From assembly GCA_003599485.1 (NCBI GenBank), contig QZKM01000006.1, positions 2,922 to 66,921 on the forward strand: a DNA stretch of 64,000 nucleotides. Reading direction: 5' to 3'. Positions 3,858 to 63,976 of the stretch are shown here, one piece after another (position 1 is the first letter of the stretch; the number at the start of each line of letters is the position of its first letter). Under the pieces are notes generated by a model. It made no database searches and was not told the origin of the DNA. It saw nothing but the letters and a program-made list of their open reading frames with translations. Made by a program: the position numbers and the translations under genes. The DNA is from Gammaproteobacteria bacterium. Lineage in GTDB: Bacteria > Pseudomonadota > Gammaproteobacteria > SURF-13.

Positions 3858-5639
3858 TCAAGCCTTCCCTGGCTGGCGCAGGCGGATATGCAGTTCGCGC
3901 AGTTGCGCCTCGCCGGTCGGCGTGGGCGCGCCGGTGAGCGGGCAGGCGGCGGTTTGCGTCTTGGGGAAGGCGATCACCTCGCGGATGGACTGGCTGCCGG
4001 TCATCAGCATCACCAGGCGGTCCAGGCCGAAGGCGATGCCGCCGTGCGGCGGCGCGCCGTACTTCAACGCCTCCAGCAGGAAGCCGAATTTTTCCCCGGC
4101 CTCTTCCGCGCCGATGCCGAGTAATTTAAACACCGCGCTTTGCATTTCCGGTTTGTGGATGCGCACCGAGCCGCCGCCGAGCTCGGTGCCGTTCAGCACC
4201 ATGTCATAGGCGCGCGACAGGCAGGCGCCTGGGTTCTGCTCCAGCGCGGCGACGTCATCCGTCTTGGGCGCGGTGAACGGGTGATGCAGCGCCTGCCAGC
4301 GCTGATCGTCATCCGAGCGCTCGAACAGGGGGAAATCGGTGACCCAGAGCGGACGAAATCCGTGCTCGATCAGTCCACGGTCATGGCCGAGCTTCACGCG
4401 CAGCGCGCCGAGCGAGTCGTTGACGACCTTGGCGCTGTCCGCGCCGAAGAAGATGAGATCGCCGGTTTGCGCGCGCGTGCGCCGCATGATCTCCGCAATC
4501 ACTTCATCGGGCAGAAACTTGAGTATCGGCGACTGCAAGCCCTCCCGCCCAAGCGCCGCGTCATTCACCTTGATGTAAGCCAGCCCTTTCGCCCCGTGCG
4601 CGGCGACGAACTGGGTGTAGTCGTCTATCTCCTTGCGCGTGAGCGCGCCGCCGCCCGGGACGTTGAGCGCCGCGACGCGGCCCCTGGAGTCACTGGCGGG
4701 CGCGGCGAATACCTTGAACTCCACGTCGCGCATCAAATCGCCCACGTCCACCAGTTCCATCGGAACGCGCAGGTCGGGTTTGTCCACGCCGTAGCGGCGC
4801 ATGGCGTCAAAGTGGCTCATGCGCGGGAACGGGTTGGGCAGCGCGACTTCAAGAGTCTTGGCGAACAGTTCGCGCATCATCTGCTCCATCAGCGTCATGA
4901 TCTCGTTCTCATCCATGAACGAGGTCTCGATGTCGAGCTGGGTGAATTCCGGCTGGCGGTCGGCGCGCAGGTCTTCGTCGCGGAAGCAGCGCGCGAACTG
5001 ATAGTAACGTTCGAACCCCGACATCATCAGCAGTTGCTTGAACAACTGCGGCGACTGCGGCAGGGCGAAGAAGCTCCCTGAGTGGGTGCGGCTCGGCACC
5101 AGGTAATCGCGCGCGCCTTCCGGCGTGGCCTTGGTGAGGCACGGCGTTTCCATGTCGAGGAAGCCGTGCGCGTCGAGAAATTCGCGCAATTGACGGGTAA
5201 TGCGCGCGCGCAGGCGCAGGCGCGTGGCCATCTCCGGGCGGCGCAGGTCAATGTAGCGGAAGCGCAGGCGCGTCTCTTCGCCCACGCCGTCTTCATCAAG
5301 CTGGAACGGCAACGGCTGCGCGCCGTTCAGGATTTCCAGTTGTTCACACAGCACTTCCACCTCGCCGCTCGGCAGATTGGCGTTTTCCGTGCCGCCGGGC
5401 CGGCGGCGCACCTGGCCGGTGACGCGCAATACATATTCGTTGCGCACCCGTTCCGCGAGGTGAAAGGTGTCCGCGTTGGCCGGATCGAACACCGTCTGAG
5501 CGATGCCTTCGCGGTCGCGCAGGTCCACGAAGATCACGCCGCCGTGATCGCGGCGCCTGTTGGCCCAGCCGCACAGCGTCACCCGCTGTCCGATGTGCGC
5601 GGCATTGAGTGTTCCGCAGGGATGGGTGCGCATGCTCAT
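3858..5639 (-). CDS. aspS: aspartate--tRNA ligase
   Basis: 593 aa. N-terminal anticodon-binding OB fold ([26 protein letters not shown]) and class II aaRS motifs ([27 protein letters not shown]). Confidence 0.95.
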
Positions 5640-6283
5640 GATCCAAGGGAGTCCCGTTCAGGTTTAGGCGGCTCGGCCTGGCCGCGCCACGGCGGCACCA
5701 CCACGCCCAGCGAGATGACCATCTTGATGGCGTCGTCCACGCTCATGTCCATTTCAATCACGTCGCGGCGCGGCACCATAAGGATAAATCCTGAAGTCGG
5801 GTTGGGTGTGGTGGGGACGAATACGGGGATAAGGTCCTCACCGGTGCGGCTTTTCGCTTCAGCCGAACCCGCGGCGGTTTGAAACGCGATGCACCACAGT
5901 CCGCGGCGCGGATATTCGACCAGCAGCACCTTGCGGAACGCAAGGCCGCCGGGTTTAAACAGGGTCTCCGACACCTGCTTGGTGCCGGAGTAGATTGAGC
6001 GCACCAGCGGGATGCGCGCCAGCAAGCCTTCCCACATTTCCACCAGCCGGCGCCCGAAAAGATTGGCCGCCAGCATGCCGGTGCCGAGCACAATCACGAT
6101 GGACAGCAACACGCCCAGGCCCGGCAGGTGGAAGCCGAGCAGCGTGTCCGGGTGATAGGCGGCGGGCAGCACCAGCAGGATACCATCCAGCAAGTCCACC
6201 ACCATGTTGATGACCAGGATGGTGACTCCGAGCGGAATCCAGATCATCAGTCCGGCGATGAGATAACGGCGCGTGTGGGTCAT
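5636..6283 (-). CDS. DUF502-family membrane protein
   Basis: 215 aa with two N-terminal TM helices and a DUF502-like N-terminus ([21 protein letters not shown]). There is a 4-nt overlap with the aspS start. Confidence 0.55.
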
Positions 6284-19743: not shown

Positions 19744-20172
19744 TTACCTGGTGCTGAGCGGGAACTTGGCGTCCTTCCAGGCGAGCAGGCCGCCCGCCAG
19801 TTTGTAAACCTGCGGAAAGCCCTGTTTGCGCAGAATCGTGGCGGCGCGCGCCGAGAACTGGCCGTTCTGGCAGCTTACGATAATGGGCTTGTTTTTGAGC
19901 CTTTCCAGTTCCGCCGTGCGTCCTTCGAGGTGCACCAGCGGGATGGATACGGCGTTCACGATATGGCCCTGCTTGAAATCCGACGCCTCGCGCACGTCCA
20001 GCACGGCGGCGTCTTCGCGGTTGATGAGACGCGCGGCCTCCTGCGGCGAGACTTCCTTGAAGCCCAGCACTTTCTGCGCCAGGCCGTCGGACAAGATCAG
20101 AACCACGATCACCAGCAGCGCCGTGAACAGTATCCAGTGATTGATAATAAATTGACCGATCTGCTCCATCAT
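19744..20172 (-). CDS. rhodanese-domain inner-membrane protein (YibN-like)
   Basis: N-terminal TM helix plus a rhodanese domain with active-site Cys in CQNG. The start at MMEQIGQF matches E. coli YibN. The longer ORF extension only translates the antisense of the hairpin repeat. Confidence 0.7.
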   Translation of the reverse strand: MMEQIGQFIINHWILFTALLVIVVLILSDGLAQKVLGFKEVSPQEAARLINREDAAVLDVREASDFKQGHIVNAVSIPLVHLEGRTAELERLKNKPIIVSCQNGQFSARAATILRKQGFPQVYKLAGGLLAWKDAKFPLSTR

Positions 20173-20268
20173 TCTCCTGCCCACGTATGCGTCCAGCGGC
20201 GGACGCCCCCGCTGCAACGGATAAATAAAATGGTATATAATACAGCGGTTTTGGCTCATGCCGCTATA

Positions 20269-20417
20269 GCAGGCTGTTGAGAAACAGCCTGCGTGCGGTG
20301 CAAGGTCGCACCGCCATTTTTCAAGCACGCTTTATGTGCTTGAAAAATGAAGCAAAGCAAAAATCACATTTTTTGCTTTGCGGATTGGAAAAGGCCATGG
20401 ATGGCCTTTTTCAATAA
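20269..20417. repeat. ~150-bp multi-hairpin intergenic repeat element, copy A (five consecutive stem-loops)
   Basis: It reads as five consecutive stem-loops. Examples are gcaggctgttgagaaacagcctgc, catttttcaagcac..gtgcttgaaaaatg, aagcaaagcaaaaa..ttttttgctttgc and ggccatggatggcc. The reverse complement reappears at ~85-90% identity at 36292-36440. Confidence 0.55.
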
Positions 20418-20497
20418 TTTAATTGGCGCGGTCATGATCTTGAAAACACGTCTGCGTCACCCGAACTATAACCAGATATATAGCTTAAAACCTAGTC

Positions 20498-22066
20498 ATG
20501 CCAGAGAAACCAAGTCCGCTGCTGCTCGTTGTTCTTGACGGCTGGGGTTACAGTGAAAGCACCCGGGGCAACGCCGTGCACGGCGCGCGCAAGCCGGTGT
20601 GGGACGGGCTTTGGAAAAATTACCCGCATACCCTGATCCGCACCTCCGGCACGGACGTAGGCCTGCCCGCCGACCAGATGGGCAACTCCGAGGTGGGGCA
20701 CCTGAATCTCGGCGCTGGGCGCGTGGTGTATCAGGAATTCTCGCGCATCAGCCGCGCCATCAAGACCGGCGCGTTTTACGACAATCCCACCCTCACCGGC
20801 GCGGTGGACAAGGCGCGCTCGCACGGCAAGGCGGTGCACATCCTGGGGCTGCTCTCGCCCGGCGGCGTGCACAGTCATGAAGACCATATTCTCGCCATGG
20901 CCGAACTGGCGGTGAAGCGCGGCGCGAAGAAGGTGTACATGCACGCGTTTCTCGACGGGCGCGATACCGCGCCGAAGAGCGCGCACGGCTCGCTCAAGGC
21001 GCTGCAGGATAAACTCGATGCGCTGGGCTCCGGGTGTATCGCCTCCATCATCGGCCGCTACTACGCCATGGACCGCGACCATCGCTGGCCGCGCATCCAG
21101 CAGGCGTATGACCTCATCACCCAGGGCAAGGCGGAATTTCAGGCCGCCGATGCGTTAAGCGCGCTCGATCTGGCCTACGCGCGCGGCGAGTCGGACGAAT
21201 TCGTCAAGGCCACCGCCATCGTGCCCGCGCGCGCCAAGCCGGTGCGGATGGAGGACGGCGACGTGGTGGTGTTCATGAATTTCCGTTCCGACCGCGCGCG
21301 CCAGATCACGCGTCCGTTCATCGAACCGGATTTCGACGGCTTTCAGCGCGAGGTCAAACCCAGGCTCGGCGCGTTTGTGAGTCTCACTGAGTACAGCGAT
21401 GATTTCGACATTCCGGTGGCGTTCCCAGCGGAGCGATTGAACAACGTATTCGGCGCCTATGTTGCGCAGCGCGGCCTGCATCAACTGCGCATCGCGGAGA
21501 CCGAAAAATACGCGCATGTCACGTTCTTTTTCAACGGCGGCGAGGAGCAGCCGTTCGAGGGCGAAGACCGCATCCTGGTGCCGTCGCCGCTGGTGGCCAC
21601 CTACGATCTAAAGCCGGAGATGAGCGCGCCGGAAGTGACCGGGCGTCTGGTGCAGGCCATCGAAAGCGGCAAATACGACGTGATTATCTGCAACTTCGCC
21701 AACCCGGACATGGTGGGGCACACCGGCAGCCTCGATGCCGCGGTCAAGGCTATCGAGGCGGTAGATGCCGCGCTGGGGAAAATTCACCAAGCTCTGCAGC
21801 GCACCGGCGGCGAGATGCTCATCACCGCCGACCACGGCAACGCCGAGCAGATGATCGGCGAAGGCACCGGCCAGGCGCACACCGCGCACACCACCAATCC
21901 GGTGCCGTTTATTTACGTGGGGCGTCCGGCGCTGATCGCCAAGGGCGGTGTGTTGTCCGATGTCGCGCCCACGCTGTTGTACCTGATGGGGCTGCCCATA
22001 CCCGCCGAGATGACAGGCCGCCCGCTGGTGACGCTGGTTGAGGAAGGCCGCGCTTACGCTGGTTAG
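20498..22066 (+). CDS. gpmI: 2,3-bisphosphoglycerate-independent phosphoglycerate mutase
   Basis: 522 aa with iPGM motifs (LLVVLDGWG, catalytic Ser region, GDHGNAEQM). Confidence 0.95.
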
Positions 22067-48210: not shown

Positions 48211-49029
48211 TTATACGGCGCCGTCCGTGTCTTTCTTGAAACTGTATTGCCCGATCTTGCCGCGCAGCGGCAGCAGTAACAGGTCAAGCAAGCCCAGCCG
48301 CGCGCGGTATTCCTTCAAGCCGATTTCAAAGCCCACTTGTCCCAGTGCCGGCTGCGCGCGGTAAGTGCCGCACAGCCGGTCCCACAGCGAAATGGAAAAT
48401 CCGAAGTTGGAGTTGGTTTCGTTGACCACGCTGGAGTGATGCACGCGGTGCATATCCGGCGTGACGATGACGAGGCGCAGCCAGCGGTCTATTTTTTCCG
48501 GGATGTGCACGTTGCCGTGATTGAACACCGAGGCGCCGTTCAGTATCAGCTCGAACGCCAGCACCGCCCAGGGCGGCGCGCCCAGGGCGGCGACGGCGGC
48601 CATTTTGTACAGCATGGAGATGACGATTTCAACCGGATGAAAGCGCACGCCGGTGGTGAGATCGAAGTCCAGATCGCTGTGGTGCACGCGGTGAAGACGC
48701 CAGAACACGGGTAGCGCGTGCGAGATTACATGCTGCAGATACAGTGCAAAATCAAGCAGCAGCCAGGCGAGCAGGAATTCCGTCCACATGGGCCAGGCGG
48801 TGAGATTGAACAGCCCCCAGCCGTGCTGCTGCGCATACAGCGCCGTGGCGTAGGCCCCGGCGCCCAGCAGCAGGCGCACCAGCAGCGCGTCCACGGCGAG
48901 CAGCGAGAGGTTGGTGCGCCAGTGCCGGCTGCGCGGCCCGGTGGGCGCACGGCGCGGACGCTGCGTTTCCCACAGCGCCATCACGATCGACAGGACGATA
49001 AAGCTGCCAAGGCGGATCAGGGTTTCCAT
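48211..49029 (-). CDS. fatty acid hydroxylase/sterol desaturase superfamily membrane protein
   Basis: His boxes HRVHHSD and HRVHHS with multiple TM segments. Confidence 0.75.
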   Translation of the reverse strand: METLIRLGSFIVLSIVMALWETQRPRRAPTGPRSRHWRTNLSLLAVDALLVRLLLGAGAYATALYAQQHGWGLFNLTAWPMWTEFLLAWLLLDFALYLQHVISHALPVFWRLHRVHHSDLDFDLTTGVRFHPVEIVISMLYKMAAVAALGAPPWAVLAFELILNGASVFNHGNVHIPEKIDRWLRLVIVTPDMHRVHHSSVVNETNSNFGFSISLWDRLCGTYRAQPALGQVGFEIGLKEYRARLGLLDLLLLPLRGKIGQYSFKKDTDGAV

Positions 49030-49030
49030 A

Positions 49031-49183
49031 TTATTGACATTTACCTAATTGGTTGACACGTATGTTTCCAGAGATCGTCATTCCCGCGCAAGCGGGAATC
49101 CAGCAGTGTGGCGGCTTTGGCCTTGGGTCCCCGCTTTCGCGGGGACGACGAATTTTGTCATCCATTTAGGTAATCTTCAATAA
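49031..49183. mobile_element. MITE-like element: 18-bp imperfect terminal inverted repeats (TTATTGACATTTACCTAA / TTAGGTAATCTTCAATAA) enclosing two REP-like GC hairpins
   Basis: The terminal repeats match at 16 of 18 positions. The interior carries attcccgcgcaagcgggaat and tccccgctttcgcgggga hairpins. The left repeat abuts the start codon of the desaturase-like gene. Confidence 0.35.
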
Positions 49184-49185
49184 AT

Positions 49186-49255
49186 ACAGTGGCGAGTGGC
49201 TAGTCGCTAGCAACAGAAATGTTCTTGTCACTTGTCACTAGCCACTCGCCACTGT
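49186..49255. repeat. 19-bp perfect inverted repeat (ACAGTGGCGAGTGGCTAGT ... ACTAGCCACTCGCCACTGT) immediately 3' of tRNA-Gly
   Basis: Arms at 49186-49204 and 49237-49255 with a 32-bp spacer. It ends 7 bp from the tRNA 3' end. It shares the AGTGGCGAGTRGCTAGT motif with the thiG 3' end. Confidence 0.45.
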
Positions 49256-49262
49256 TGTAATT

Positions 49263-49336
49263 TGGAGCGGGTGATGGGAATCGAACCCACGTTATCAGCT
49301 TGGGAAGCTGAAGTTCTACCATTGAACTACACCCGC
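49263..49336 (-). tRNA. tRNA-Gly (anticodon CCC)
   Basis: 74-nt cloverleaf folded by hand. Acceptor GCGGGUG/CACCCGC, U8, D-stem GUUC/GAAC, anticodon stem UCAGC/GCUGA with loop UUCCCAA, T-loop UUCGAUU, discriminator U73 and an encoded CCA. Confidence 0.85.
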
Positions 49337-49464
49337 GCGTTTTTAGCTTAGCATAACAGTCAGGATACCGAGAAAGCCTTTGCTTATTATTCATTGGCCT
49401 CCCTCGCACCGATGCCTTAAAATAGCCGCTTGAAGTGCCCCCGAAGGGGTGAGAGTTGTATTTT

Positions 49465-49665
49465 ATGCAAATTTTCGTGAACGGACAGGCGCGCGACGTC
49501 TCCGAAGGCTGTAACGTCACGCAGCTCCTCATGCAACTGGATATGGCCGGCAGGCGCTGCGCCCTGGAGATCAACCGCGAGATCGTGCCGCGCAGCGCCT
49601 ACGCCACTCGCAGGCTGCGCAGCGCCGATCAGGTGGAAATCATCCATGCCGTCGGAGGGGGTTAA
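49465..49665 (+). CDS. thiS: thiamine biosynthesis sulfur-carrier protein ThiS
   Basis: 66 aa starting MQIFVNG and ending in the GG C-terminus. Confidence 0.8.
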
Positions 49666-56698: not shown

Positions 56699-57902
56699 GT
56701 CTGATTAATCAAGTGCTGCGTGACCTGGAGAGCGGACGCCCTCGGGGCCCGGCGGCCAATGCGCTGGGTGATTTACGCCCGGCCCAGTCACCGTCCCCGT
56801 CTTCCATGCTGCGGCAAGTCAACTGGCGGCGGCTCGCGGCGATAGTGTCCGGGTTCGCCCTGCTGCTCGGAGGCTATCTCTGGTATGCGCGCATGAACCC
56901 GGCGCCGCCGCCGCTGACCTTCAGCGTGGCGCCCGCGGTAACACCCGCCGTTGCGCCGCAGACCGGCGGAGGCGGGACCCCGGAAGCGCCGCCGGCGCAA
57001 ACCGGGGTGGCGGCAAGCGTTGCTACTCAGGGCGCGCAAGCGCCGTCCATGGATACCCCGCCCCCCGTCCCGGAGGCGGTCACGTCCGAGGTTCCTGTTT
57101 CTGCGCCCGGCGCCGCGCCGCCGGTGGAGGCGCTCCCCCCGCAGCAGGATGCCGGGCAGCAGGATGCCGGTAAAAAGACCGATGCGGATGTTGCCGCGCA
57201 GACGGCGGGCAATGAACAGGCGCAACGCGCACCCACGCCGCCCGCTGCCCAGCCGCCCGCACGCGTGCAGGACAGCACCCCGGCCGGCCGCCCGCCGCGT
57301 ATCAAAAAGCCCAGCGTCCAGGGACCCTCCCAGTTGGCTGAGCGCAACTATCAAGAGGCCGTCGAGGCGCTGCAAAACGGCAAAGTTGCGGACGCCCGGC
57401 AAAGACTGCGTGAGGCCCTGGCGCAACAGCCGCGCCATCACCAAAGCCGCGAGCTGCTGGCCGAGATTTATCTGCGCGGCGGCCAGACCGGTGAGGCGGA
57501 AAGCCTGCTCGCGGCGGGCGCGGCGCTGGATCCGGGCCATACCCTGTTCAGCAAACTGCACGCGCGCCTGTTGGCGCAGCGCGGCGATATTTCCGGCGCG
57601 CTGCGGGTTTTAGAGCGGTATCCGGCGGACGCCGCCGGCGACCCCGAACACCACGCCCTGCTCGGCGCGCTTTATCAGCGCGCCGGGAATCACGCGCAGG
57701 CAATTTCCGCTTACCGGGCCGCGCTGCGCCTGCAATCGAACCAGGGCCAGTGGTGGATGGGGCTCGCCATTTCCCTGGAGGCGGAGCAAAATCCAGGCGA
57801 GGCGCTGAGCGCCTACCGGCGCGCGCAGAGCTCCGGCGCCCTCACCGGGGCCGCGCTGGACTTCGTGCAACGCAAGATCACGCGCCTGGAGGCGTCCGCG
57901 TC

Positions 57903-57906
<4 letters not shown>
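56695..57906 (+). CDS. mshN: MSHA biogenesis protein MshN (TPR repeats, Pro/Ala-rich linker)
   Basis: TM anchor, a ~130-aa Pro/Ala-rich low-complexity segment, then C-terminal TPR repeats. Confidence 0.6.
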
Positions 57907-59678
<1,772 letters not shown>

Positions 59679-59731
59679 TATCTCGTAACGTCTGAAATTT
59701 CCAGATCAGAAAAGATGATTATTCTTTCGCC

Positions 59732-59974
59732 GTGAAAGGATACAAGTTCACACCGTATTTCGAAAATGAGGTATTACGTAAACGTCCTTATCTGAGCAAA
59801 GAGTGGTGTATTCGAGTTCTTGAAAGCCCTATTAAGGTTGAAACTCAGGAGGGTAACCGCTTCCGTTTTTGGGGCACAATTGCCGAACTAAATGGTAAGA
59901 TATTACGAGTCATTACCCTGGAAGATAAGGTTACCATCCATAACGCCTTTCCGGACAGAGGGTTTAAACCATGA
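59732..59974 (+). CDS. DUF4258-family toxin-like protein
   Basis: 80 aa within a sharply AT-rich segment (~59690-60200). Paired with a DUF2283 gene by a 4-nt overlap. Confidence 0.6.
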   Translation: MKGYKFTPYFENEVLRKRPYLSKEWCIRVLESPIKVETQEGNRFRFWGTIAELNGKILRVITLEDKVTIHNAFPDRGFKP

Positions 59975-60189
59975 GACTTAAATACTATCCTGAAACTGAT
60001 TCGCTCTATATTGATCTTTCAGAAAAGCCCAGCACCGAGAGCAAGGAGATTTCTGAGGGGGTGGTGCTGGATTATGATGACAGCGGGAATCTGGTGGGTA
60101 TTGATATTGACAATGCCAGTAAAAAGATAGAACTCAAAGAATTGACATTAAGTCATCTCCCCTCCATTGTCCACACAGTCGCTGCTTGA
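59971..60189 (+). CDS. DUF2283-family antitoxin-like protein
   Basis: 72 aa. Y-x-PE-D-LYI-L...G-LVGIDI pattern typical of DUF2283. Start overlaps the DUF4258 stop (ATGA). Confidence 0.6.
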   Translation: MRLKYYPETDSLYIDLSEKPSTESKEISEGVVLDYDDSGNLVGIDIDNASKKIELKELTLSHLPSIVHTVAA

Positions 60190-60266
60190 TACTACGTTTG
60201 AAGGAGATTGGAGGGAGGCGGGGTTTTTCTTGATCCCATAAACCTCGTCCCGCGAGCGAACCCGTC

Positions 60267-61496
60267 ATGCCGCTGTTCAACTACCAAGGCCGCAGTGCGC
60301 GCGGAGAGCTCATCAAGGGCTCCGTGGACGGGATGAGCGCCGACGCGGTCGCCAGCCAGTTGTTCAACAGCGGCATCACCCCGATAGACATCGTCGAGGC
60401 GCGGCCGGAGACGGACGTGCTGGTATTGCTGAAGCGCCATCTTGCTCAAGGCAAGGCGGAGTTGTCGGATCTGATTCTGTTCAGTCACCAGATGTACACC
60501 CTTACCAAGGCCGGCGTGCCCATTACCCAGGCGCTCGCCGGTCTCGCCGAGTCCACGCGCAAGCACGACTTCAAGGAGGTGCTCAAGGACGTCGCGGACA
60601 GCCTGCAAAGCGGACGCGATCTGGCGAGCTCGCTCAACCGCCACCCGCGGGTCTTCAACCGCTTGATTGTGAGCATCGTCCAGGTGGGCGAGAGCAGCGG
60701 CAACCTGGATCAGGCGTTTGTGCAACTTTCAAAATATCTGGAAACGGAAAAAGATACGCGCGACCGCATCAAGTCGGCGCTGCGCTACCCCGTCATCGTG
60801 ATGATTGCGATTGCCGTGGCCGTGGCCATCATCAATATTTTCGTGATCCCGGCCTTCGCCAAGCTCTTCGCCAGCTTCAAGGCCGAACTGCCGTGGGCCA
60901 CCAAGCTGCTCATCGGTACGTCGGATTTTTTTGTCGCCTACGGACCTTATATACTGGCCGCGCTGCTGATCGGTGGCATCGGCCTGCGCGCATGGATCAA
61001 GACCGACGAGGGGCGTTATGCCTGGGACCGCTTCAAGCTGAGAATACCCCTGCTCGGCGACATCCTCAACCGCGCCACTCTGGCGCGCTTCGCGCGCTCC
61101 TTCGCCATGGCGCAGCGCGCCGGCGTGCCGCTGGTGCAGGGGCTCACGGTGGTGGCCAACGCGGTGGACAACCGCTACATCGGCGACCACATCCTGGCCA
61201 TGCGCAACGGCATCGAGCGCGGCGAGAGCATGACCCGCACCGCCGCCCTCTCCGGCATGTTCACCCCCATGGTGTTGCAGATGATGGGCGTGGGCGAGGA
61301 AACCGGCGCGCTGGACGACATGATGCAGCAGGTGGCGGAGTTCTACGAGCGCGAGGTGGACTACGACATCAAGAACCTGAGCGCCAACATAGAACCGGTC
61401 CTGATCGTGGCCATCGGCATCATGGTGTTGATTCTGGCGCTGGGCGTATTCCTGCCCATGTGGGACCTGGCCCAGGCCGCGCGCCGCGGGGGATAA
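60267..61496 (+). CDS. mshG: MSHA biogenesis inner-membrane platform protein MshG (GspF family)
   Basis: 409 aa with two GspF repeats and three TM helices. Confidence 0.85.
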   Translation: MPLFNYQGRSARGELIKGSVDGMSADAVASQLFNSGITPIDIVEARPETDVLVLLKRHLAQGKAELSDLILFSHQMYTLTKAGVPITQALAGLAESTRKHDFKEVLKDVADSLQSGRDLASSLNRHPRVFNRLIVSIVQVGESSGNLDQAFVQLSKYLETEKDTRDRIKSALRYPVIVMIAIAVAVAIINIFVIPAFAKLFASFKAELPWATKLLIGTSDFFVAYGPYILAALLIGGIGLRAWIKTDEGRYAWDRFKLRIPLLGDILNRATLARFARSFAMAQRAGVPLVQGLTVVANAVDNRYIGDHILAMRNGIERGESMTRTAALSGMFTPMVLQMMGVGEETGALDDMMQQVAEFYEREVDYDIKNLSANIEPVLIVAIGIMVLILALGVFLPMWDLAQAARRGG

Positions 61497-62020
61497 TGGA
61501 TAAGGCACGCGGATTCTCGCTGATCGAGATGGTGATCGCGGTCATCCTGGTGGGCATACTCTACGTCATCGCCATTGATAAACTTCTGGAGATGCGCGTG
61601 GACGCCGAGCGCGTGGCCATGGAAAACGTGGTGGGCGCCCTGAAGAGCGCGCTCAGCATCGAGGTCGCCGCGCATATCGTGCGCGATGACATCAAGGGTC
61701 TGTACACCCTGGAAGGAACCAACCCCATGCGGCGTCTGAGTGAAAAACCCAGGAACTATCTGGGCGAGCTGGCCGCTCCGGATCCGGCCGCTATTGAGGG
61801 CGGCAACTGGTACTTCGATACGCGCGAGGCGGCGTTGATCTACCGCGTCCAATACGGCGACTTTTTTAAGACAACCCTGCTCGGCCCGCCGCGCGCGCGC
61901 TTTGCGGTAAGGCTGGATTACGATGACCTGAACGGCAACCGCGTCTTCGACCAGGGCGTGGAAGAAGTGCACGGTCTGCGCCTTGAGGCTTTGGAGAGCT
62001 ATGCGTGGAACCTGAGTTAG
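61496..62020 (+). CDS. mshF: MshF-like minor (pseudo)pilin with class III prepilin leader
   Basis: MDKARG|FSLIEMVIAVILVGIL prepilin peptidase site. Start overlaps the mshG stop (TAATG). The larger 60893-62020 ORF is an out-of-frame artefact across mshG. Confidence 0.5.
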   Translation: MDKARGFSLIEMVIAVILVGILYVIAIDKLLEMRVDAERVAMENVVGALKSALSIEVAAHIVRDDIKGLYTLEGTNPMRRLSEKPRNYLGELAAPDPAAIEGGNWYFDTREAALIYRVQYGDFFKTTLLGPPRARFAVRLDYDDLNGNRVFDQGVEEVHGLRLEALESYAWNLS

Positions 62021-62064: not shown

Positions 62065-62712
62065 ATGCAAATACACCTCCTGAATGAGATTCTGCTGGAA
62101 ACGCTGCTTGCCCTGCTGCTGGGCGGGGCGGCGTTAAGTTTGATCGTCGGCGTGTGGTTGTACTTCCACCCTGAGCGGCTGTTTTCGCTCGGTCAGCGGC
62201 TCAATCAATGGTTTTCCACGCAGTCGCTCACCCGGGCCATGGACGCCACCTTCCACATCGAGCGCCCCGTGTACCGCCGGCACCGTTGGATCGGCGCGCT
62301 GCTGGCCGTAAGCGCGCTCTACATACTGTACCAGTTGAGTTTCCGCTACGACAAAAGCGCCACCTTGCGCATGCTGGAGAATCACAACCTCCAGCTTGCC
62401 GGCTGGCTGCTGGATTCGGCCGCTTTTTTAATCGCGCTCACCAGCGTACTGACGCTGGCGATCGGCATTTGCCTGCTGATCAGGCCCAGCCTGCTGCGGG
62501 CGTTTGAAACATGGAGCAACCGCTGGTACCGCGGTGGCGACAAGGTGGCGCAGCTTCTGGACGACATGCATCATCACCCCGACCGCCTGGCCGTTCGCCA
62601 CTCACGTTTTATTGCGGTTTTGATCGTGCTGGGCAGCCTGTACGTGTTGACCAACCTGGGCTTTGTCGCGTTCACGCACGGCTGGGGTGTATTGTCGGTG
62701 CTCTACCGGTAG
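62065..62712 (+). CDS. hypothetical 4-TM inner-membrane protein inside the msh cluster
   Basis: 215 aa with four hydrophobic helices. No recognised family. Confidence 0.4.
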   Translation: MQIHLLNEILLETLLALLLGGAALSLIVGVWLYFHPERLFSLGQRLNQWFSTQSLTRAMDATFHIERPVYRRHRWIGALLAVSALYILYQLSFRYDKSATLRMLENHNLQLAGWLLDSAAFLIALTSVLTLAIGICLLIRPSLLRAFETWSNRWYRGGDKVAQLLDDMHHHPDRLAVRHSRFIAVLIVLGSLYVLTNLGFVAFTHGWGVLSVLYR

Positions 62713-63005: not shown

Positions 63006-63464
63006 ATGGATATCAGAAAACAACCCGGCTTCACCCTCATCGAACTGGTGCTGGTCATCACCATCCTCGGTATCCTCGCCGCCTTCGCGGTGCCGCGCTT
63101 TATCAGCATAAGCGCAGACGCCCGCCTGGCGACGGTGAACAGCCTGGCCGGCAGCCTGCGCAGCGCCGCGGCGCTGGCGCATAGCGTCGCCCTGGTGCAG
63201 GCCGCGGGGGCAAGCTCCTCCATCAGCGTGGACGGAGCGACAGTAACCATGGTGCAACACTATCCCGCGGGCACCGCCGATGGTATCGTTGCCGCACTTC
63301 AGGATTTGACAGGATTCACCTCCTCCGCTTCAGCCGGCATCGTCACTTTCCAGGTCAAAGGCGTAGCCACGCCGGCTTCGTGTCAGGTGCAGTACACACA
63401 GGCAAGCGGGACAGGAGGGGCGCCCACGATCACCGTGACGGCGAGCACTTCGGGTTGTAGTTAA
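63006..63464 (+). CDS. mshB: MSHA-type type IV pilin (MshB-like), class III prepilin
   Basis: MDIRKQPG|FTLIELVLVITILGILAAFAVPRF leader and alpha1 helix. Confidence 0.75.
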   Translation: MDIRKQPGFTLIELVLVITILGILAAFAVPRFISISADARLATVNSLAGSLRSAAALAHSVALVQAAGASSSISVDGATVTMVQHYPAGTADGIVAALQDLTGFTSSASAGIVTFQVKGVATPASCQVQYTQASGTGGAPTITVTASTSGCS

Positions 63465-63526: not shown

Positions 63527-63976
63527 ATGAAAAAGCAAACCGGCTTCACCCTCATTGAGCTTGTATTGGTCATCACCATCCTCGGCATCCTCGCCGCCTT
63601 CGCGGTGCCGCGTTTTATCAACATCACCGGAGACGCCCGCCTGGCGACGGTGAATGCCTTGGCCGGCAGCATGCGCAGCGCCGCGGCGCTGGCGCACAGC
63701 ATGGCGCTGGCCACCGCTGCGGGCGCTGCTTCTTCAATCAGCATGGAAGGGGCCACCGTCACCATGGCGTTCCACTATCCTACCGGCGACGCAGCCGGGA
63801 TAGGGACGGCGCTGCAGGATACGGGCGGCTTTTTTTCAAACGCGTCGGGGAGCACCATCACTTTCAGCCCTGGTGCGGCTATTGATAGCGACTGTCAGGT
63901 GACCTACACCTCCTCCACCGGCACGGGGCTGTCTCCGACCATCACAGTAACCGCCAGCGCGGCAAACTGCGCCTAA
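63527..63976 (+). CDS. mshA: MSHA-type major pilin (MshA-like), class III prepilin; paralogue of upstream pilin
   Basis: MKKQTG|FTLIELVLVITILGILAAFAVPRF. The first ~60 aa are nearly identical to the upstream pilin; the C-terminal halves diverge. Confidence 0.75.
   Translation: MKKQTGFTLIELVLVITILGILAAFAVPRFINITGDARLATVNALAGSMRSAAALAHSMALATAAGAASSISMEGATVTMAFHYPTGDAAGIGTALQDTGGFFSNASGSTITFSPGAAIDSDCQVTYTSSTGTGLSPTITVTASAANCA

Follow-up and report, generated by a model that had tools for sequence, protein, structure and literature searches.

The locus analysed here raised the question of what the AT-rich DNA lying between mshE and mshG, two genes of an MSHA-type pilus operon, actually is and how it came to be there. 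The window, i.e. the whole stretch of DNA under study, comprises 64,000 nucleotides; the features of interest and their coordinates are shown in Table 1. A preliminary description of this DNA had proposed a horizontally acquired toxin-antitoxin (TA)-like cassette inside the pilus operon, and had assigned its two small genes, ORF1 and ORF2 below, to DUF4258 and DUF2283, respectively.

The location of the cassette within an MSHA operon, between mshE and mshG, was confirmed by the Pfam and NCBIfam matches of the flanking genes. In addition to the Pfam domains given in Table 1, the mshE product displayed the MshE-related c-di-GMP domain NF053729 of NCBIfam (75.6 bits for a cut-off of 38), and the MshG protein was 88 and 87% identical, over its full length, to those of the related loci L003 and L004. 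Genes coding for AAA_22 (MshM-like) and TPR (MshN-like) proteins were found upstream of mshE, and pilin-like genes occurred after mshG. The locus displayed the hallmarks of an MSHA-type operon, namely the mshM-N-E-G gene order, with the MshG platform protein encoded after an MshE ATPase that carries MshEN, the c-di-GMP-binding domain, at its N terminus. The listed mshE open reading frame, which begins with GTG at 57750, overlapped the 3' end of the TPR gene by 157 nt; its true start probably lies about 50 codons further in, near 57900, since the c-di-GMP-binding motif begins only at residue 59. Downstream of mshG, a pilin-like gene (61496-62020) was followed by an ORF coding for a hydrophobic protein of 215 aa without Pfam match (62065-62712) and then by two pilin paralogs in tandem (63006-63464 and 63527-63976), each of which displays the N-methylation motif GFTLIELV.

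Table 1. Features of the mshE-mshG region (positions in the window)
Feature	Position	Strand	Evidence and remarks
mshE-type pilus assembly ATPase gene, upstream host gene	57750..59678	+	Pfam T2SSE 449 bits, MshEN (PF05157) 56.7 bits
Inserted segment of about 580 bp, AT-rich (GC 0.42 vs 0.62)	59679..60258	+	Junction alignment, tblastn coordinates, GC trough
Promoter-like element, weak	59698..59725	+	-35-like TTTCCA (59698-59703), 16-nt spacer, -10-like TATTCT (59720-59725)
ORF1, basic 80-aa protein (pI 9.6), putative toxin of an unnamed family	59732..59974	+	GTG start, BECR/RelE-like fold
ORF2, acidic 72-aa DUF2283/YuzE-type protein (pI 4.5), putative antitoxin or immunity partner	59971..60189	+	Pfam DUF2283
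Spacer from the ORF2 stop to the mshG ATG	60190..60266	+	No terminator, fold z-score -0.55, no Rfam match
mshG-type (T2SSF/PilC-like) platform protein gene, downstream host gene, intact	60267..61496	+	Pfam T2SSF 199 bits

A sliding GC profile bore out the AT-richness reported for the gap between both genes. In 200-bp windows, GC content was 0.415-0.45 over positions 59700-60200 against 0.60-0.70 on both sides, and the 500 bp starting at 59701 displayed the lowest value (0.424) of the whole 64 kb (mean 0.617, sd 0.039), i.e. about 5 sd below the mean. Only two other regions, at about 20051-20600 and 49001-49500, fell below 0.50, both of them being ordinary divergent intergenic regions (the glutaredoxin/rhodanese-iPGM spacer and the fatty-acid hydroxylase-thiG spacer). 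The bias was also observed at third codon positions, where GC3 was 0.41 for ORF1 and 0.45 for ORF2 vs 0.78-0.86 for five neighbouring genes (mshE 0.81, mshG 0.86). Recoding the two ORFs with host codon usage gave an expected total GC of 0.55-0.56, as compared with the observed 0.42-0.43.

Low GC by itself is no proof of transfer, since cassettes of this family lay below their flanks in 61 of 63 loci, by 7 points on average and even where GC3 was host-adapted, a deficit that is largely an effect of amino-acid composition. Across the family, cassette GC tracked host GC (r=0.78, GC3 slope of 1.28), which indicates that most copies have resided in their hosts for a long time. The copy in the window clearly departed from this trend: its GC3 of 0.43, for a predicted value of 0.67, was situated 3.1 sd below it (z=-3.1). 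This cassette is foreign to its host in codon usage, for which horizontal acquisition would be the best reading.

The edges of the inserted segment were established from a junction alignment of the window with L003 and L004, which are devoid of the insert, and with locus L002, which carries the same one. The left edge falls immediately 3' of the mshE TAA (59678), and the right edge about 8 nt 5' of the mshG ATG, where the window sequence AACCCGTCATG realigns with AAACCGTCATG of the relatives. A border-repeat check did not reveal meaningful terminal repeats or TIRs, target duplication (TSD) or attC site at these borders, nor did any recombinase family recur among the neighbours of 80 family loci. 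The segment displayed none of the features of a transposable element, an integron cassette or a MITE (TIR, TSD, attC-like site, adjacent transposase or integrase). A candidate degenerate duplication, CGTAACGTC/CGAACCCGTC, was too weak to count as a mobile-element signature, and the 19-nt D1 repeat belongs to native mshE/mshG sequence. Likewise, no Rfam family, terminator or structured RNA was found in the insert by Rfam search, terminator scan and folding.

Comparison with related genomes substantiated the proposal that two normally adjacent genes had been separated by an insertion. When GTDB genomes were scanned with MshG, ten loci were obtained, nine of which (L003 to L011) carried no cassette and displayed mshG within about 12-70 bp of mshE according to tblastn coordinates. 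Counted from the mshE stop, the distance was 6-70 bp in relatives vs 588 bp in the window. The cassette-free set includes L003 and L004, whose MshE proteins are 83% identical to that of the window, as well as a Shewanella locus (L008) in which mshE and mshG are adjacent. Absence of the cassette from these nine loci indicates that the segment is an insertion. The close mshE-mshG coupling encountered in relatives (6-9 nt apart in L003 and L004) is lost in the window.

The same mshE-cassette-mshG junction was present in L001 (SRR28842984) and L002 (SRR28285715), which come from two other sequencing runs. A further copy occurred in L096 (NCBI GCA_038923785.1, JBCKVM010000013.1), which derives from a related MAG (89% identity with the window in the PilM-like protein) and displayed the end of mshE (~45 bp), ORF1 with an ATG start, ORF2 and the beginning of mshG (~190 bp). 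The cassette in its msh setting is common to at least three sequence-distinct lineages (L001, L002 and L096), across which its divergence is similar to that of its flanks. The notion of an acquired cassette was upheld as regards insertion and foreign GC, but three other assemblies carry the insertion, which is not a novelty at the strain level.

At the nucleotide level, the L096 cassette was ~89-90% identical to that of the window and the mshG fragment 87.8%. Values of dS relative to L096 were 0.34 for ORF1, 0.68 for ORF2 and 0.25 for the mshG fragment, the corresponding value for mshG against cassette-free relatives being ~0.4. The omega values were 0.16 for ORF1 and 0.04 for ORF2, and both ORFs are under purifying selection. 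The arrangement persisted through ~12% sequence divergence, and its simplest reading is one insertion in the ancestor of the L001, L002, L096 and window lineages, inherited since then with little compositional amelioration. Between L002 and the window (59378-60635), the cassette was 99.5% identical, the mshE tail 97.4% and the mshG head 95.4%; this stronger conservation of the cassette as compared with its host flanks suggests either strong constraint or recent recombination between strains.

The L096 copy displayed some peculiarities. At positions 4461-5671, a 243-bp segment from the 5' part of argJ was duplicated with 99.2% identity and flanked a 725-bp insert composed of the mshE tail, ORF1, ORF2 and 190 bp of mshG (a 65-aa T2SSF_N fragment), the mshG-to-argJ junction displaying the microhomology CAcGGgCAG. 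Either the msh cassette and its flanks were copied into argJ, ~4 kb upstream of the msh operon of L096 itself, or this argJ copy is an assembly artefact. Its spacers (4740-4765 and 5219-5250) comprised 18 nt before ORF1 and 29 nt after ORF2, against 53 and 77 nt in the window. The 18-nt leader was GC-rich and contained no -10/-35 element; the promoter-bearing leader seems to have been lost in the L096 lineage while the ORFs were kept.

ORF1 begins with GTG, the sole canonical start in its frame. Its product did not match any Pfam model even at E=10, including DUF4258 (PF14076) and BrnT (PF04365/DUF497), nor any entry of NCBIfam, PADLOC or PHROGs, and sequence and profile searches against PDB chain sequences yielded chance matches only, for ORF2 as well. 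Assignment to DUF4258 could not be retained: the family HMM missed ORF1 and 56 of its 57 relatives, the last one giving a non-significant E of 0.08. Gene order was discarded as a DUF4258 criterion, as two papers disagree on it. ORF1 displayed a BECR (Barnase-EndoU-Colicin-RelE)/RelE-like fold, and its best structural neighbours were BrnT/RelE-type toxins, all of them active, the closest one being of BrnT type. This superfold would be the only feature that ORF1 shares with DUF4258. Since the latter has been classed as BECR (PMC11980606; bioRxiv 10.64898/2026.08.28.747851), the DUF4258 label is wrong at the family level and right at the superfold level. No link between ORF1 and a characterised toxin was detected at the sequence level, and catalytic residues could not be mapped.

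Clustering at 90% identity gave over 3,391 clusters for the family to which ORF1 belongs, and clustering at 50% gave 930 representatives; nearly all members are exactly 80 aa long and 75-85% identical to ORF1. The conserved polar residues of ORF1 are R18, R43, R59, H70, N71, D75 and R76. Their source labels include Gammaproteobacteria, Bacteroidota, Ignavibacteriales, Binatia, Chlorobaculum, Nitrospira and Deltaproteobacteria, and the family consensus reads T.YFE..VLRKRPYL..EWC..V.E.P...E.Q.DGR.RFWG.I.EL.GR.LRVVTL.D..TIHNAFPDR.FK. Family-wide protein identity was 72-85% across phyla (median ~76%), with saturated synonymous sites and a pN of ~0.15. The constraint on the pair across phyla is unusually tight for a putative TA pair.

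Assignment of ORF2 to DUF2283 held true, with a Pfam match (PF10049) of 66.3 bits for a cut-off of 23 that spans model positions 2-49 out of 49. Its homologs carried a precomputed PF10049 annotation together with the JGI name YuzE (COG5428). In the structure model, residues 1-50 formed a beta domain of five strands and residues 51-72 a conserved C-terminal tail, which was modelled with low confidence and may be disordered. No DNA-binding fold, RHH or other, was recognisable among the structural matches of ORF2; classical autoregulation is therefore unsupported, and ORF2 would be more immunity-protein-like. ORF2 also matched the structure of a CdiI immunity protein, but so weakly (below customary significance) that this is only suggestive of such a likeness. 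The net charges of both products are complementary, with +4.6 for ORF1 and -7.3 for ORF2. Searches of PHROGs returned for ORF2 only matches of unknown function with E>0.01, and no anti-phage defence match was recorded in PADLOC for the cassette.

DUF2283/YuzE has been called a predicted antitoxin (PMC12521503). The literature searched contained no paper mentioning DUF4258 and DUF2283 together, and so lent no backing to the earlier statement that they form a widely predicted pair; it yielded no experimental data on any member of the ORF1 or DUF2283 families, nothing relevant on YuzE/COG5428 (author-name matches only) and no mention of '7VD7'. A link between DUF2283 and the ICE antiactivators QseM/FseA was rejected, the all-beta model of ORF2 not being that of an HTH-like regulator. 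The domain concerned was named DUF2285 in later work, and its designation as 'DUF2283' in a 2015 commentary is presumably a misprint. Text mining spuriously ties DUF2283 to ICE antiactivation through the wording of this commentary, in which the FseA/QseM domain is called 'DUF2283' (PMC4755241).

The survey of the pair as such covered 81 loci, originating from metagenomes or from a single viral contig, 79 of which had room downstream. A DUF2283 gene directly followed the ORF1 homolog in all 79, and an identical 4-nt ATGA overlap was observed in 77 of them. The two small genes of the window overlap through the same ATGA junction, as had been noted in the preliminary description. No third gene was conserved, and no flanking family occurred in more than 6 of 80 loci. 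Nucleotide similarity between the window and the 80 other loci was confined to 59720-60190, which covers the ORFs and the promoter, and at the 79 other loci the contexts were unrelated, with no linkage of the pair to pilus genes.

Two small adjacent genes that are autonomous, patchily distributed and independent of context, one of the partners displaying a known toxin fold, correspond to the general outline of type II TA systems; a DNA-binding domain, the usual attribute of the antitoxin, was not found. The proposed TA-like nature of the cassette was hence sustained by its type II anatomy and by its DUF2283 partner, but not by a DUF4258 match of ORF1.

Expression signals were conserved across the family as well. 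Of 72 unique sequences preceding ORF1, 45 contained a -10-like hexamer whose end fell 5-9 nt short of the start codon, mostly (39) at a distance of 6-7 nt; other 5-nt bins contained 2-11. A -35-like element, TGGCCA/TGGCTT, was situated 17 nt further upstream. A -10 box at 6-7 nt from the start codon implies a leaderless or near-leaderless mRNA. SD-like 4-mers preceded ORF1 in 9 of 81 loci, the window not being among them, vs 55 of 58 unique upstream regions with an SD-like motif before ORF2. The latter SD forms part of the conserved ORF1 codons for D-R-G, GACAGAGGG, and reads AGAGGG in the window. The TATTCT of the window ends 6 nt before the GTG, which is the canonical distance in the family; a generic promoter scan returned none in the window cassette, this element remaining below threshold. 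GTG is generally a poor start for leaderless translation, and it was the start codon in 17 of 72 members of the ORF1 family. No obvious SD for mshG was detected in the spacer that precedes it (60190..60266). As neither terminator nor stable structure was found between ORF2 and mshG, transcription from the msh promoter or from that of the cassette would reach mshG.

The segment is probably a self-contained, horizontally acquired module of type II TA-like nature, inserted into the mshE-mshG spacer. Such a two-gene module would have entered the short spacer in the same orientation as the operon, and would normally carry its own promoter, with the -10 box close to the ORF1 start. ORF1, a basic protein with a BECR fold, would most likely be an RNA-targeting toxin, to which we ascribe a putative RNase activity, and ORF2 would most likely bind and neutralise it, using both the beta domain and the conserved tail. 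Translation of ORF1 is expected to occur from a leaderless mRNA without SD, and that of ORF2 from the internal SD site within the last ORF1 codons, by translational coupling through the ATGA overlap. Because the ORF1 cistron is SD-less whereas that of ORF2 is SD-coupled, synthesis would be biased toward the neutraliser, and an excess of antitoxin could be ensured in a module where the toxin comes first. Addiction or defence might be the outcome for the module itself, and its insertion may exert a polar effect on mshG.

Chances are about even that ORF1 and DUF2283 together represent an undescribed and widespread TA family with a BECR toxin unrecognised by Pfam and NCBIfam, a leaderless organisation and an all-beta, immunity-like partner lacking a DNA-binding domain. 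Such a family would comprise thousands of clusters at 90% identity in Proteobacteria, Bacteroidota, Chlorobiota, Nitrospirota, Binatia, KSB1, Rhodothermota and others. If this is indeed a new TA family, its exceptional conservation would argue for constraint imposed by interaction with a universal target such as the ribosome, a tRNA or EF-Tu.

Several observations count against a textbook TA system and would be in better agreement with a conserved non-toxic pair, e.g. a BECR-fold regulator that binds RNA or ribosomes and has lost its catalytic activity, DUF2283 serving it as partner or chaperone, in a housekeeping-like or stress role. The 75-85% identity maintained across phyla, although synonymous sites are saturated, is atypical for TA toxins, and the host-adapted composition of most copies implies long residence. 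Furthermore, hardly any sequenced plasmid (2 of 72,556) and no phage of the collection (0 of 50,697) carried the family, and ORF2 does not display a DNA-binding domain. Yet, the pair is patchily distributed, its context varies from locus to locus without conserved neighbours, it is missing from the closest relatives of the source genome and it is found among other TA genes. A basic protein paired with an acidic one, coupled translation and a leaderless layout with the toxin first are all typical of TA modules, and the structural neighbours of ORF1 mentioned above are all active toxins. We consider this explanation unlikely, though worth keeping in mind.

It is more doubtful still that the module became an inert remnant in the source genome, where it would be passively transcribed with the msh genes and ORF1 barely or not translated, the main effect being the loss of translational coupling between mshE and mshG. 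Both ORFs are intact and full-length, the omega values given above reflect selection since the split from the L096 lineage, and the cassette is closer to that of L002 than are its flanks. These observations have to be weighed against the GTG start of ORF1 without upstream SD-like motif, the weak -35 and the empty generic promoter scan, which, like the GTG itself, also count against the TA-like reading, and against the 588 bp that now separate mshG from the mshE stop. As to the start codon and the promoter, GTG is shared with other family members and the -10 hexamer has been kept at its canonical 6 nt.

Domestication as a regulator of the MSHA pilus, with a cassette promoter driving mshG and the downstream pilin genes or with ORF1 modulating msh mRNA, appears very improbable. 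The orientation of the cassette along the operon, the absence of a terminator before mshG and the maintenance of the arrangement through ~12% nucleotide divergence in at least three lineages would be compatible with it, but the module is a generic one, none of its 79 other loci with unrelated contexts being pilus-linked; the closest msh operons work without it, and no sequence tie to msh function was found. An assembly chimera or contamination, in which a low-GC fragment was misjoined into a high-GC contig, scarcely deserves consideration despite the abrupt switch in composition at both borders, the metagenomic origin of the source assembly and the odd rearrangements of the same segment in L096, since the junction is repeated in the independent assemblies L001 and L002, the L096 copy is also msh-flanked and, on either side, the flanks fall back into exact register with those of relatives. 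The mshE-cassette-mshG junction is real and not an assembly artefact.

Among known systems, the TA-like module proposed here is related by its organisation to BrnT/BrnA of Brucella abortus (BrnT, PF04365/DUF497; PDB 3u97), with which it shares a RelE-like fold and a toxin-first operon. It differs by the failure of ORF1 to match the BrnT HMM and by its all-beta DUF2283 partner, BrnA being a ribbon-helix-helix protein. RNase activity of BrnT was demonstrated in vitro (PMC11980606), whereas that of ORF1 is putative. DUF4258 (PF14076), which overlaps Ntox49 and belongs to the colicin-like BECR branch, would resemble ORF1 by its superfold, and does so by its small size and predicted toxin role with a downstream partner, and both are experimentally uncharacterised. 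However, the structural neighbours of ORF1 are BrnT/RelE-type and not colicin-type, and the partners reported for DUF4258 are HicB- or MqsA-like instead of DUF2283.

CdiA-CT/CdiI pairs of the EF-Tu-dependent tRNase type (PDB 5i4q, 7vmc) are another point of comparison. In contrast to these, ORF1 is a free-standing cytoplasmic protein without delivery domain, and the cassette displays gene overlap and an own promoter, both features of TA modules; the likeness of ORF2 to CdiI is weak and sub-significant. As for DUF2283/YuzE (COG5428), ORF2 is a bona fide member of this family, the function of which is only predicted, and its toxin partner here is unnamed. By analogy, the cassette appears most similar to toxin-first BECR modules of the BrnTA or HigBA type, without being a member of any named toxin family.

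There is nothing unusual about a TA-like cassette within an operon; the novelty resides in the unnamed ORF1 family as defined here, in its obligate partnership with DUF2283 and in its leaderless architecture. At the level of the operon, this locus indicates that the few nucleotides separating core pilus genes coupled in translation can accommodate a selfish two-gene module, and the persistence of the latter through ~12% divergence constitutes a natural experiment on the tolerance of operons to insertions. At the level of annotation, a very large and uniform family of 80-aa BECR-fold proteins, currently 'hypothetical', has been exposed, while the 'predicted antitoxin' DUF2283 gains a defined partner and an operon architecture in which a leaderless toxin gene precedes an SD-coupled one. 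Should toxicity prove true, ORF1 would stand for a new toxin family of Pfam level in catalogues of TA and defence systems.

Some individual copies deserve separate mention. The closest one outside the msh context, with an ORF2 90% identical to that of the window, was found at L094:4176-5219 (NCBI GCA_049322975.1, a Pseudomonadota MAG), immediately after a HigB-like toxin/HTH_3 pair, at a site bounded by two porin genes. This 5-kb patch forms a small TA island that also contains two HicB-like genes and a Phd/YefM gene. The sole relative from a putatively viral contig (L013:4998-5467; IMG/VR UViG_3300029327_000054) was 49% identical for ORF1 and 36% for ORF2, and displayed a 5-nt gap in place of the ATGA overlap. 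A cultured source of the pair, practical for experiments, is provided by plasmid pRMAR01 of Rhodothermus marinus DSM 4252 (L097:2998-3478; RMAR_RS14345/RS14340), where an ORF1 homolog of 53% identity, annotated as 'hypothetical protein', is separated by a 13-nt gap, not an overlap, from a 'DUF2283 domain-containing protein', with a VapC gene a few kb away.
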